From positions 1 to 4,504 of the IMG/VR virus record IMGVR_UViG_2778261570_000002: a DNA stretch of 4,504 bases. One strand, 5' to 3'. Positions within the stretch are counted from its first letter, which is position 1, and each line of letters begins with the position of its first letter. The translations under genes and the position numbers were made by a program. Positions 450-4,504 of this stretch are shown in pieces. The DNA comes from a virus. Its lineage: Duplodnaviria; Heunggongvirae; Uroviricota; Caudoviricetes. The notes below the pieces were generated by a model. That model worked only from the letters and a program-made list of their open reading frames with translations. It was not told the DNA's origin and did no database searches.

Positions 450-755
450 TTATTCCTGCTCTTTGGCCTTGCGACGCTGGAGTTCTTCACGTGCGACGGT
501 GACGAGCTGCCCGATCTCCTCGACAGCTTTGACTCCGATTTTTTCCACCTGCGCCAGCGCATCGAGCGAAGAAACCAGGGGATTTTCTCCGCTTCCTTCT
601 GCCTGGCGGCGGGCGATCTCACCGCGTACAGCCGTAACTATAAAATTCGCTTTAGTTTCCCATGGCTGTAGGGATGCCTCAATGCCACTCACTACTTCAT
701 GTGGAAATCTGGCATTCAGTTGCTGTGATTTATTGTTAACAGAACTCGTGGACAT
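450..755 (-). CDS. Hypothetical protein, 101 aa; first gene of the leftward unit, candidate regulator by position only
   Basis: ATG at 753-755 (minus strand) is preceded by a strong Shine-Dalgarno GGAGGTG (complement of 761-767) with a 6-nt spacer; stop at 450-452. The 180-aa track ORF (450..992) extends upstream through the operator-like repeats with a hydrophobic, low-complexity N-terminus and no RBS, so the shorter start is preferred. Confidence 0.6.
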   Translation of the reverse strand: MSTSSVNNKSQQLNARFPHEVVSGIEASLQPWETKANFIVTAVRGEIARRQAEGSGENPLVSSLDALAQVEKIGVKAVEEIGQLVTVAREELQRRKAKEQE

Positions 756-797
756 GTTTGCACCTCCGATTAATAACGGGATGCAGTGTAATACAAA

Positions 798-853: not shown

Positions 854-1144
854 CAAGGGCTGATACATGCAATTCAGCAATTGAAACGACGAAGCCCCGC
901 ACTGTTGGAGCAGTAACGGGGCTTCTAACCAAACCGTTAACTGGAGTAACGATTATGGCTGTAAGACAGCATACCCCACGACTTGCGCACACACAAACGG
1001 TCTTTGTGTGGCGTTTTCTGGCACTAAGTGCCGGAGAATCTCAAATCGTCCACGTAACCGCCTGGACGGAACGCGAAGCGCGTAACCGTTGCCCGTCCGG
1101 TTGTGTCGCTGTATTCGCCGCCCGTATTCGTCAGGGGGTGCGCC

Positions 1145-1405
1145 ATGTGCAATAAAAACACGCCGGACGCAGCCGCCGAAGCCATCAAAACGCTAATGCA
1201 CGCGCTGATTGATATTTCATGCACGGCAGCAACCGCAGAAAAACACATTACCAGAGAGCCGGAGTATACAGGGGCAATAATCCCCCATTCGCTGGCCTAC
1301 GCACAGCTTACCGCTGATATGGCACTGAATGAGGCTAAAGCCATCCTGATTGCTGATTGTGAAAATGGGGGGGGGTTATGCGTGATGATCGTTTTAATGC
1401 CCTGA
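1145..1405 (+). CDS. Hypothetical small protein (86 aa), first ORF of the rightward replication operon
   Basis: ATG at 1145 is preceded by AGGGGGTG (1132-1139), a good SD with 5-nt spacing. The ORF ends at TGA 1403-1405 and its 3' end runs through a G9 tract. No family recognised. Confidence 0.45.
   Translation: MCNKNTPDAAAEAIKTLMHALIDISCTAATAEKHITREPEYTGAIIPHSLAYAQLTADMALNEAKAILIADCENGGGLCVMIVLMP
1367..1375. repeat. Homopolymeric G9 tract at the junction of two overlapping small ORFs
   Basis: Nine consecutive G read directly at 1367-1375. The tract encodes GGG in the 1145 frame and serves as the SD region for the ATG at 1378. Confidence 0.9.
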
Positions 1406-1756: not shown

Positions 1757-1809
1757 AGCCTGTATTCGTGCCGGAATAAAACCGGAATCACTGACAGGAA
1801 AATAAAACC

Positions 1810-2124
1810 ATGAAAAAGAAAAATTCTGGCTTTACTGCCAGCGGCCCCGCTCGGCCTGAAATCCGCCCCGACGATATTTTCAAAGATAAATACGGCGGAC
1901 GAATAACGATAAAAACCGTCGATGATTTTCGCGTGACTTATATCCGCGAAGGTTATGCGCATCCCTGCGTGTCGTCACATATGCGTTTTGAGAGTGAATT
2001 CACCCTGGTAAGCAAAGCACCACCAGCGAACTTAAGCGACATCGACAGAATCATGCGCGTTACAGGTATGGAACGCATTAAGGCAGTACGTGAAATTATT
2101 CGTGAGCGGGGAAAGGCAAAATGA
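1810..2124 (+). CDS. Hypothetical protein (104 aa), translationally coupled to the helicase gene
   Basis: ATG at 1810 has AGGA about 10 nt upstream. Its stop TGA (2122-2124) overlaps the ATG (2121-2123) of the next gene as ATGA. No family recognised. Confidence 0.5.
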   Translation: MKKKNSGFTASGPARPEIRPDDIFKDKYGGRITIKTVDDFRVTYIREGYAHPCVSSHMRFESEFTLVSKAPPANLSDIDRIMRVTGMERIKAVREIIRERGKAK

Positions 2125-3926
2125 AACTGGCACCGAACTTAAAAAAACAGCCACACGACAAAATGACCGAAGTCATTATTTTTGCGGGTAGTGATGCCTG
2201 GGCGCACGCGAAACAATGGCAGGAGCAGGACGGGCGACTTGCCGGCGACAATGTTCCGCCTGTATGGCTTGGAGACAGCCAGCTTGACGAACTGGCAGAC
2301 CTGAAAATTATCGACGATGGTCGCTATTGTGTCCGGCTGTACAAGGCAGGCCACATCAAGCCATCAAATATTAATGCCATCGGGCAAAAGCTGGCGGCGG
2401 CAGGTGTACGGGATGCGAATTATTACCCTGAGGGGATGCACAGCCAGAAGCGGGAGAACTGGCACGAATATCTGGAGCGTGAGCGCCAGAATCTTTCTGA
2501 TGGTCTGGTTATTCAGCTTCCTGTTAAGAAAAAAACAGAAGACAGCGCCGCACCACTGGCGCTTAACCAGATGGGAGCAAGCCAGCGCGGCGAAGTTCTC
2601 CTGGCACGTTATGGCGGTGAACTGGCAATTAATGCGGACTCTGACACCGTTCACCACTACAACGGCGTTGTATGGGAGCCGGTACAGGATAAAGAGTTAC
2701 AGCGGGCTATGGCGCAGATTTTTATTGATGCGGAGATCAGTTATTCGCAGAACGCCATCAAATCGGCGGTCGATACAATGAAGTTAAGTTTGCCCGTAAT
2801 GGGGAATACCGCCCGTAACCTGATTGGATTCAGTAACGGTGTTTTTGATACCCGGACAGGCGATTTTCGGGAGCATGACAAAAACGACTGGCTGTTAATT
2901 GCCAGTGAATTACCGTTCAGCCCGCCAGCAGAGGGGGAAACGCTGGCAACGCATGCGCCGAATTTCTGGAAATGGTTGCGCCGTTCGGTGGCTGAGAATG
3001 ACCGTAAAGCGGATCGCGTACTGGCGGCGTTATTCATGGTGCTGGCGAACCGATACGACTGGCAGTTATTTCTTGAGGTAACGGGGCCGGGTGGAAGCGG
3101 TAAAAGCGTAATGGCGGAGATTTGCACCATGCTGGCGGGTAAGGCCAACACGGTATCGGCAAGCATGAAGGCGCTGGAAGATGCCAGGGAACGCGCGTTA
3201 GTGGTTGGATTTTCGCTGATTATCATGCCGGATATGACCCGCTACGCTGGTGATGGCGCAGGAATTAAGGCCATTACAGGCGGTGACAAGGTGGCAATCG
3301 ACCCGAAGCATAAAGCCCCCTACTCAACACGCATTCAGGCGGTCGTGCTGGCGGTGAACAATAACGCCATGTCATTCAGTGACCGCAGCGGGGGGATCTC
3401 ACGTCGTCGGGTGATATTCAATTTTTCGGAGGTTGTACCGGAAAACGAACGCGACCCCATGCTGGCAGAAAAAATAGAAGGAGAGCTGGCGGTTGTGATT
3501 CGCCACCTGCTTACTCGTTTTTCTGACCAGGACGAAGCTAAACGCCTGCTGTATGAGCAGCAGAAATCAGAAGAAGCACTGGTGATAAAACGCGAGGGCG
3601 ATTCGCTGGTGGACTTCTGCGGCTATCTCATGTCGTCGGTAATGTGTGATGGTCTGTTAGTGGGTAATGCCGAAATTATTCCGTTCAGTCCGCGCAGGTA
3701 TCTTTATCACGCCTATCTGGCATATATGAGGGCACACGGATTCGGTAAACCTGTAACACTGACGCGCTTCGGTAAAGATATGCCGGGGGCAATGGCGGAA
3801 TATGGCAGGGAGTATATGAAACGGAAAACGAAGCACGGTTTGCGTTCAAATGTGACCCTTACAGAGGATTCAGAAGACTGGATGCCATCATGTGCATCGG
3901 TCACAAATGACGATGGAAAAAATTAA
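2121..3926 (+). CDS. Replication protein: SF3 (D5/P4-alpha-type) helicase with a probable C-terminal origin-binding region (601 aa)
   Basis: Longest ORF in the window. Walker A GPGGSGKS at aa 322-329 (nt 3084-3107). Walker B-like hydrophobic stretch ending in Asp, LIIMPD, at aa 366-371. SF3 motif C with Asn, VLAVNNN, at aa 409-415. A cluster of P4-type iterons lies immediately downstream. SD-like GGGGAAAGG upstream of the ATG. Confidence 0.88.
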   Translation: MKLAPNLKKQPHDKMTEVIIFAGSDAWAHAKQWQEQDGRLAGDNVPPVWLGDSQLDELADLKIIDDGRYCVRLYKAGHIKPSNINAIGQKLAAAGVRDANYYPEGMHSQKRENWHEYLERERQNLSDGLVIQLPVKKKTEDSAAPLALNQMGASQRGEVLLARYGGELAINADSDTVHHYNGVVWEPVQDKELQRAMAQIFIDAEISYSQNAIKSAVDTMKLSLPVMGNTARNLIGFSNGVFDTRTGDFREHDKNDWLLIASELPFSPPAEGETLATHAPNFWKWLRRSVAENDRKADRVLAALFMVLANRYDWQLFLEVTGPGGSGKSVMAEICTMLAGKANTVSASMKALEDARERALVVGFSLIIMPDMTRYAGDGAGIKAITGGDKVAIDPKHKAPYSTRIQAVVLAVNNNAMSFSDRSGGISRRRVIFNFSEVVPENERDPMLAEKIEGELAVVIRHLLTRFSDQDEAKRLLYEQQKSEEALVIKREGDSLVDFCGYLMSSVMCDGLLVGNAEIIPFSPRRYLYHAYLAYMRAHGFGKPVTLTRFGKDMPGAMAEYGREYMKRKTKHGLRSNVTLTEDSEDWMPSCASVTNDDGKN

Positions 3927-3937
3927 ACTTATGGAAT

Positions 3938-4168
3938 AACTGTTCACCACTGTTCACCCTATCATAAATGTCTTTTATATCAGTACATTATAGGGTGAAC
4001 AGTTATTTATGAACTGTTCACCAAACTATTCACTGTTCACCTTTTTGATTGTTTATTGAGCTTAAGGGTGAACAGTGGTGAACAGTTGGTGAATAGTTTT
4101 TGTGAAACTGTTCACCCCTTAACATCATGAATAAAAAGGGAAAATCTCAAAAGGTGAACAGGTGAAGG
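3938..4168. repeat. Iteron cluster, putative origin of replication (P4 ori/crr-like)
   Basis: Nine perfect copies of TGTTCACC: on the + strand at 3941, 3951, 4015, 4034 and 4109, and as GGTGAACA at 3994, 4067, 4077 and 4153. At least three one-mismatch copies at 4027, 4088 and 4161. AT-rich spacers at 3959-3992, 4120-4150 and 4169-4200. It is directly 3' of the helicase gene. Confidence 0.7.
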
Positions 4169-4212
4169 GTTAAAATGCAAAAATTTTATTTTATTGCTGT
4201 GAGGTAAAGCCC

Positions 4213-4458
4213 GTGACAACGAAGCACGCAAAAAAACCACAATCTCACGCCCTTGATTTGACAGAACACTGGCTGAGAGTGGCGATAAAAATCATCGATC
4301 GCAACGCGGGAGAAGGATACGCGAAAGCACATCCTGAACTGATAAGCGCATTCATGACAACGGCGGCGGCAAACTTTGCCACGCTGACAGAACGAGAGAT
4401 TGCCGAAGCGGAACAGGTGACAACCATCAACGTTAAACCCGGAGAGCAGACAGCATGA
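4213..4458 (+). CDS. Hypothetical protein (81 aa), first gene of the operon downstream of the origin
   Basis: GTG start at 4213 with SD GAGG (4201-4204) and 8-nt spacing. Its stop TGA (4456-4458) overlaps the ATG (4455) of the following gene. No family recognised. Confidence 0.5.
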   Translation: MTTKHAKKPQSHALDLTEHWLRVAIKIIDRNAGEGYAKAHPELISAFMTTAAANFATLTEREIAEAEQVTTINVKPGEQTA

Positions 4459-4504
4459 CAGCACAGATAGCGGCTTACGGGCGGCTGGTGGCTGACCCGC
4501 AGTT
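4455..4504 (+). CDS. 5' end of a gene running off the window (16 codons visible); SSB-like N-terminal motif, tentative
   Basis: ATG at 4455 with SD GGAGAG (4441-4446) and 8-nt spacing; ATGA overlap with the upstream stop. The visible peptide MTAQIAAYGRLVADPQ resembles the hhhhG(N/R)LxxDP(E/Q) start of OB-fold single-stranded DNA-binding proteins. Only 48 nt are available. Confidence 0.35.
   Translation, partial: MTAQIAAYGRLVADPQ

Follow-up and report, generated by a model that had tools for sequence, protein, structure and literature searches.

The repeats at positions 3927–4212 are very probably the replication origin (oriV) of an Escherichia coli phage satellite of the PICI or capsid-forming PICI (cf-PICI) type, recognized by the product of the gene immediately upstream. 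They were identified in a 4,504-bp stretch of viral DNA, referred to as the window. Origins of this kind are known, with experimental validation in the island EcCICFT073, and E. coli genomes commonly carry the sequence. The genes and protein domains surrounding the origin are as follows.

1810–2124, plus strand: DUF4222 ORF of 104 aa that belongs to the conserved replication block and shares 4 nt (ATGA) with the start of the helicase gene
2121–3926, plus strand: initiator-helicase gene, the "Pri-Rep" of a PICI-type satellite, 601 aa, comprising an SF3 helicase and a C-terminal origin-binding domain
2121–2495, plus strand: N-terminal domain of about 125 aa with a Toprim-like fold, without a Zn ribbon and with the Toprim acidic motifs not conserved
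3597–3887, plus strand: C-terminal origin-binding domain, residues 493–589, matching PDB 1KA8, the winged-helix domain of P4 alpha (phmmer, E-value 2.3e-24)
3813–3854, plus strand: hypervariable segment Y565–V578 (YMKRKTKHGLRSNV), co-varying with the iteron core
4213–4458, plus strand: 81-aa ORF (orf81, PHROG 1231), conserved and always located between the origin and ssb
4455–4504, plus strand: start of the ssb gene, running off the window end and matching the SSB (PF00436) gene of island L027 (12335–12757; DNA 99% identical)

Architecture of the repeat array

The octamer TGTTCACC occurs ten times as an exact copy in the window, with nine copies falling within 3941–4160. Its chance expectation is 0.13 per window, and none of 200 dinucleotide-preserving shuffles of the window reached ten copies. 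An earlier interpretation of this DNA, termed here the sequence-only reading, had reported nine perfect copies in both orientations within about 230 bp and a chance figure of about 0.14 per 4.5 kb, all in agreement with the present counts. Its "at least three one-mismatch copies" require correction, as only one such site exists and two further sites carry two mismatches each. Both of these sites match positions with better copies in relatives. Because the degenerate copies occupy conserved positions, the array is counted as 12 iteron sites in 228 bp, all of them at places conserved among relatives. Beyond the 8 nt of the octamer, the conserved repeat unit is approximately (A/C)ACTGTTCACC.

3941, 3951, 4015, 4034 and 4109 (start positions), plus strand: five exact copies of TGTTCACC
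3994, 4067, 4077 and 4153 (start positions), minus strand: four exact copies of TGTTCACC
4088–4095, minus strand: iteron with one mismatch, TATTCACC, the sole one of this class in the array
4027–4034, plus strand: iteron with two mismatches, TATTCACT
4161–4168, minus strand: iteron with two mismatches, CCTTCACC

AT-rich stretches interleaved with the repeats had likewise been proposed, and composition bears this out: the array region is 66% AT, compared with 51% for the whole window, and the spacers reach 69–77%. The least stable 30-mer of the window lies inside the array at 3964–3993 (−29.9 kcal/mol, against a mean of −41.2 with a standard deviation of 3.4), and 6 of the 10 least stable 30-mers fall in 3916–4195. 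The first iteron begins 15 nt past the helicase stop codon (3926), and the origin is located directly 3' of the helicase gene in 25 related loci as well. The array resolves into two modules and three spacers, in which F and R denote plus- and minus-strand octamers, respectively, and lower case denotes degenerate copies.

3941–4041, minus strand: left origin module, P4-ori type and inverted, with F3941, F3951, R3994, F4015, f4027 (two mismatches) and F4034
3959–3993, no strand: left AT-rich spacer, 35 nt and 77% AT, between convergent iterons and holding the least stable 30-mer
4042–4066, no strand: central spacer, 25 nt and 76% AT, with the approximate dyad center of the whole origin near 4054
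4067–4168, plus strand: right origin module, collinear with the core of P4 ori and comprising R4067, R4077, r4088 (one mismatch), F4109, R4153 and r4161 (two mismatches)
4117–4152, no strand: right AT-rich spacer, 36 nt and 72% AT, between convergent iterons

Start-to-start spacings are F3941 -10- F3951 -43- R3994 -21- F4015 -12- f4027 -7- F4034 in the left half and R4067 -10- R4077 -11- r4088 -21- F4109 -44- R4153 -8- r4161 in the right half, with 33 bp separating the halves (F4034 to R4067). Each module thus consists of three tandem iterons, a 21-bp step, one opposed iteron, an AT-rich spacer of about 35 nt and two further iterons. Since the left half, read on the opposite strand, repeats the iteron order of the right half, the origin is described as two P4-ori-type modules of about 100 bp each, inverted about a dyad near 4054 and each collinear with the core of P4 ori, the iterons being set 10/11, 21 and 43/44 bp apart. 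An inverted repeat of 36 nt with 83% complementarity in the array is consistent with this arrangement. Most spacings lie near whole helical turns (10/11, 21, 33 and 43/44). The left spacer (3959–3993) is a candidate unwinding site, given its low predicted stability. Searches for DnaA box, IHF, Fis and GATC consensus sequences in 3850–4260 returned none.

The tenth exact octamer lies apart from the array, at 3353–3360 on the minus strand within the helicase gene, where it overlaps the codons GCG GTG AAC AAT of a conserved LAVNNN motif. A functional role for this copy was considered and rejected, since the octamer encodes the conserved AVNN residues; it is most likely a coding coincidence. Exact octamer copies occur at similar distances from the stop codon in L026, a P4-like relative.

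Likeness to the origins of P4, EcCICFT073 and SaPIs

The P4 record (GenBank X51522) labels TGTTCACC an "ori type 1 repeat" at ori as well as at crr. The window therefore shares with P4 an identical type 1 iteron octamer, present in several copies and in both orientations, as the sequence-only reading had claimed. Similarity extends beyond the octamer: blastn aligns window positions 4066–4123 to P4 ori 9309–9367 with 81% identity over 58 nt. The P4 ori core has the spacings R -10- R -11- R -22- F -43- R -10- R, and the right module (4067–4168) is collinear with it (10-11-21-44-8 here, 10-11-22-43-10 in P4), with which further alignments agree. The two 120-bp units of P4 crr share the module part consisting of F, the AT-rich spacer and R R. 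On the protein side, residues 134–591 of the 601-aa product align with P4 alpha 313–771 at 50% identity, a stretch spanning the helicase and the C-terminal DNA-binding domain, and the segment motif K-x-x-T-K-x-G-x-x-x-N is kept.

Several features of the P4 replicon differ from those of the window. In P4, ori and a duplicated crr lie 4.5 kb apart, whereas here a single compact cluster contains two inverted modules; the complete related elements likewise carry one iteron cluster each, with no separate ori and crr. Next to its type 1 repeats, P4 has type 2 repeats (3 × 10 bp, CACTTAAAG-like), and no repeats of the latter type were found in the window. P4 alpha carries a Zn-ribbon and Toprim primase, in contrast to the Toprim-like fold of about 125 aa without catalytic motifs in the window protein. 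Upstream of the initiator, P4 encodes the Cnr regulator, whereas the window has the DUF4222 ORF and no Cnr (DUF5375) homolog; the DUF4222 ORF was itself considered as a Cnr homolog and rejected, as it has no similarity to P4 ORF106 (DUF5375). The surrounding genes are psu-delta-sid in P4 and those of a PICI or cf-PICI here. The designation "P4-type origin" consequently holds for the iteron, the module layout and the binding domain, but not for separated ori and crr, type 2 repeats, the Zn-ribbon/Toprim primase or Cnr. Judged by these comparisons, the origin is homologous to that of P4 and would work like one, yet belongs to a PICI-type replicon.

Lying directly 3' of the helicase gene, the array has the position of P4 crr. 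Its sequence and spacing match P4 ori best. Together with the F, AT-rich spacer and R R part shared by the crr units, this position raises the alternative that the array is a crr-like cis enhancer or a copy-control (handcuffing) site, with the true origin located elsewhere, as ori and crr are separated in P4. This is improbable, although slightly less so than the other alternatives considered below. No second iteron cluster was found within the 10–22 kb of the complete elements L027–L030, L001, L033 and L002, the right module follows the arrangement of P4 ori itself, and the EcCICFT073 rep-ori plasmid no longer replicates once the equivalent region is deleted (PMC6092414).

That plasmid provides the experimental precedent for the oriV assignment. 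A temperature-sensitive plasmid carrying EcCICFT073 rep and ori gave colonies at the restrictive temperature, and rep or ori mutants gave none (Fillol-Salom et al. 2018, ISME J, PMC6092414). The EcCICFT073 locus (NC_004431, 1377930–1388654) has the same gene order as the window, namely ylcI/ynfO, icd-like, small ORFs, DUF4222, helicase, ori, orf81 and ssb; its origin is likewise directly 3' of the initiator gene, and iteron layout and spacings are equal. EcCICFT073 Pri-Rep and the window protein share 49% identity overall, and their N-terminal domains align with few differences. The iterons differ: in EcCICFT073 the core is TGTCTACC, accompanied by TATCTACC-like variants in the 288 bp past the stop codon, whereas the window has TGTTCACC. 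At the DNA level, only the N-terminal domain (77%) and orf81/ssb (90.6%) align by blastn, the helicase core, binding domain and origin having diverged past blastn detection. Because the flanks align and the middle does not, the helicase core, binding domain and origin appear to have been swapped as one cassette, as expected of a cognate pair.

The PICI origin organization has been described as common to no other known replicon, with Pri-Rep only distantly related to alpha (PMC6092414). For the window allele, the match to P4 ori in both spacing and sequence argues otherwise. The features of a Gram-negative PICI rep-ori unit are present, with the origin directly 3' of pri-rep and convergent iterons flanking AT-rich DNA (the 35- and 36-nt spacers).

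A further parallel is found in the SaPIs, the staphylococcal PICIs, whose Rep is a self-loading SF3 helicase with a C-terminal winged-helix domain that binds iterons just 3' of rep; these iterons lie on both sides of an AT-rich center, and binding data fit one hexamer per side (PMC9371898). The two systems have in common oppositely pointing iterons around an AT-rich region directly downstream of rep, as well as allele-specific specificities. SaPI iterons, however, are 5–6 nt long and number 6–12, and the likeness described here is one of architecture.

The initiator and its co-variation with the iterons

The 601-aa protein contains the Pfam domains D5_N (158–287), DUF5906 (321–429) and Pox_D5 (492–587). 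These domains, the alignment to P4 alpha and the match of residues 493–589 to 1KA8 support the earlier identification of the adjacent gene as an SF3 helicase with a P4-alpha-type origin-binding C-terminus. The N-terminal domain occupies the place of Toprim_3 in P4 alpha. Inspection of its invariant columns found the Toprim glutamate and DxD acidic residues to be absent, and the domain is read as a putative degenerate Toprim; for this reason the protein is probably not a primase.

To examine conservation, one genome per species was scanned, yielding 23 loci from Enterobacterales. The layout set (n = 25) counts in the window, phage vB_KppS-Ant and EcCICFT073, and spans Escherichia, Klebsiella, Citrobacter, Kluyvera, Raoultella, Serratia, Rahnella, Erwinia, Pantoea and other genera. 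A repeated octamer was found within 330 nt past the helicase stop codon in the compared loci (n = 25), and the layout is recognizably the same in most of them: [F F]-43-[R]-21-[F f F]-33/45-[R R r]-21-[F]-44-[R R], with recurrent 10-, 43/44- and 21-bp spacings. Among seven diverged TGTTCACC-type loci, mean pairwise identity was 0.89 in iteron columns and 0.63 in spacers (Mann–Whitney p = 3e-14, a statistic without phylogenetic correction in which all columns share one tree). The iterons are under selective conservation.

Across 27 initiators, the octamer core takes six forms, each accompanied by its own version of residues 565–578, with one exception; the co-variation statistics are without phylogenetic correction.

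Core TGTTCACC: segment K-R-K-T-K-H-G-x-R-S-N, in the window, P4 and 11 others
Core TGTCTACC: segment with a 5-residue insertion (..CTRGPDKGR..), in five loci
Core TCTCCACC: segment ..KST-KGNMRSN, in three loci
Core TGTCCGCC: own distinct segment version, in L016 and L017
Core TGTCCACC: own distinct segment version, in L018
Core TATCTACC: own distinct segment version, in L023 and L024

Pairs of initiators with different iterons have a mean identity of 32% in the segment versus 62% in the rest of the domain; for pairs with the same iteron, the values are 68% and 74%. The divergence is sharpest between close relatives. L017 and L018, whose iterons differ by a single base, are 37% identical in the segment and 96% elsewhere in the domain. 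Two contigs of one metagenome-assembled genome (MAG Enterobacterales SMAGNO137; L021 and L025) encode initiators with 47% identity in the segment and 89% elsewhere, with the cores TGTTCACC and TCTCCACC, respectively, as if specificity had diverged so that co-resident replicons stay orthogonal. The exception is EcCICFT073, which combines core TGTCTACC with a short segment unlike that of other TGTCTACC loci. Because EcCICFT073 breaks the pairing, either the segment falls short of a simple one-to-one code or residues elsewhere play a part.

In the winged-helix fold, the β-hairpin wing is the stretch following the third helix. On this topology, Y565–V578 is a candidate for the wing and for the specificity determinant of the iteron core; the AlphaFold2 model of the C-terminal domain (pLDDT 38) gives no support for the wing position.

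The same co-variation bears on whether the repeats are mainly operators that put transcription of the orf81-ssb-morphogenesis genes downstream under the control of the helicase or some other regulator. The array is intergenic and lies upstream of orf81/ssb, and initiators often autoregulate via their iterons, so that a secondary regulatory role alongside origin function may exist. As the principal function, regulation is a slim prospect, marginally slimmer than a crr-like site: what the repeats co-vary with is the binding domain of the helicase itself and not a regulator, their layout and spacing match the proven EcCICFT073 origin, and no sigma-70-like promoter or intrinsic terminator was found in 3800–4504, which suggests read-through from the helicase gene.

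Least probable of all is a role as a structured element of RNA or DNA, such as a hairpin or cruciform, or as a site of packaging or recombination, with the repeats incidental to a long inverted repeat, for although the 36-nt inverted repeat exists and weak Rfam miRNA-precursor matches reflect its hairpin potential, these matches are biologically implausible, conservation falls on the octamers and not on pairing partners, and the cos sites of EcCICFT073 have been identified as separate cos sequences away from ori. The Rfam matches themselves, obtained in E-value mode in 3967–4146, are to plant miRNA precursors (MIR821, MIR395 and others) far below their gathering scores, and were rejected as artifacts of the long, imperfect inverted repeat that the two modules make up together.

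Element context, replication model and further observations

In the public collection, 407 blocks contain an exact match to the 601-aa protein. This protein is encoded in PICI-type islands (L027 and L028) with the order int, alpA, ..., DUF4222, helicase, orf81, ssb, as well as in capsid-forming PICI islands (L029 and L030) carrying capsid, protease, portal, HNH, TerS and TerL genes, in line with the satellite or PICI-like element proposed in the sequence-only reading. Window positions 1800–4504 are at least 99% identical across L027–L030 as one block, and the upstream DNA is mosaic. One replication cassette (DUF4222, helicase, ori, orf81 and ssb) is thus shared intact by PICIs and capsid-forming PICIs, between which gene flow of the primase-replicase has been described (PMC10085698). 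The island context, with int and alpA, a unidirectional operon, pri-rep, genes for interference or packaging and site-specific integration, is provided by L027/L028, L029/L030, L001 and EcCICFT073, the window being too short to show it alone. On this gene context, the element is assigned to the PICI/cf-PICI replicons and not to P4.

At a threshold of at least 90% identity, the origin segment was found in 594 of 5426 complete E. coli genomes (~11%), with up to six copies per genome; the present analysis assigns a function to this conspicuous array. One genome, CP025676.1, contains two capsid-forming islands, L029 (2746859–2768664) and L030 (3724466–3746271), with identical helicase and origin. 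Given these two islands and the genomes with up to six origins, a common iteron specificity evidently does not block co-residence in the integrated state. A further record, NZ_CP148328.1 (L033; 10,790 bp), was deposited as a circular, non-mobilizable E. coli plasmid and is in fact a complete PICI-like island with int, alpA, ylcI, icd-like, DUF4222, helicase, ori (95% identity), capsid-protease fusion and DUF1441. This circular record suggests that an excised episomal form was assembled; as a sign of autonomous replication it is suggestive only.

By analogy with the P4 and SaPI systems, a mechanism can be proposed for the window allele. After induction and excision of the island, the C-terminal winged-helix domains of the initiator would bind the helically phased iterons (~10.5, 21, 33 and 43 bp), and this binding would nucleate the assembly of hexamers on both flanks of the AT-rich spacers. 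The spacers would then melt, and the SF3 motor would translocate 3'→5', establishing theta replication, with the unwound strands coated by the element's own SSB, whose gene starts at 4455. The host would supply the polymerase and, most likely, the primase; priming is probably host-supplied because the protein has no recognizable catalytic primase domain. The sufficiency of rep and ori has been shown on the homolog EcCICFT073, which has a different iteron and 49% protein identity. The sequence-only reading had spoken of a "self-contained replicon", which fits the autonomous replication of the homologous rep-ori unit (PMC6092414) but needs qualification insofar as host priming is most likely still required.

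These results leave the current picture of satellite replication unchanged. When the full-text literature was searched for the octamer, the only hits were primer sequences with no relation to it. What may be modestly new is the apparent tracking of the iteron core by one short initiator segment over six specificities, as may be the retention by the window allele of P4's exact iteron together with an ori-collinear module. The constant layout, six cores and one hypervariable segment offer a concrete and cheap handle on how a winged-helix domain chooses its iteron, and the identity of the iteron with that of P4 raises the question of whether different satellite families sharing a cell compete for initiators or make use of one another's. 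Tentatively, and with some doubt, we suggest that PICI origins and P4 ori/crr could be homologous versions of one module of about 100 bp, the window allele having retained P4's iteron specificity, and that the six cores and their segments could form a readable recognition code. If so, cross-firing or replication interference could arise when P4-like satellites and the PICI/cf-PICI lineage share a cell, and the six cores, each paired with its own initiator segment of 14–19 residues, could serve as a code for building orthogonal replicons.

Other observations concern the upstream part of the window. The divergent intergenic region between a ylcI/ynfO-like gene (450–758, minus strand) and an icd-like ORF (955–1155, plus strand) contains a 9-bp GC-rich hairpin at 891–927 (GAAGCCCCG...CGGGGCTTC) and a short inverted repeat at 808–830 (GAATACC...GGTATTC). 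C4 antisense RNA accompanies icd in P1 and P4. Neither structure had an Rfam match, including to C4 antisense RNA; they could be a regulatory RNA or an operator.

A poly-G tract of nine residues (G9, 1367–1375) lies at the junction of the ORFs 1145–1405 and 1378–1611. In the relatives L001, L027, L028 and L032, a G8 tract leaves two separate ORFs coupled by ATGCGTGA, and in L030 a G10 tract fuses both into one 155-aa product matching full-length PHROG 2512. Either this homopolymer is hypervariable or the G9 tract is a sequencing error.
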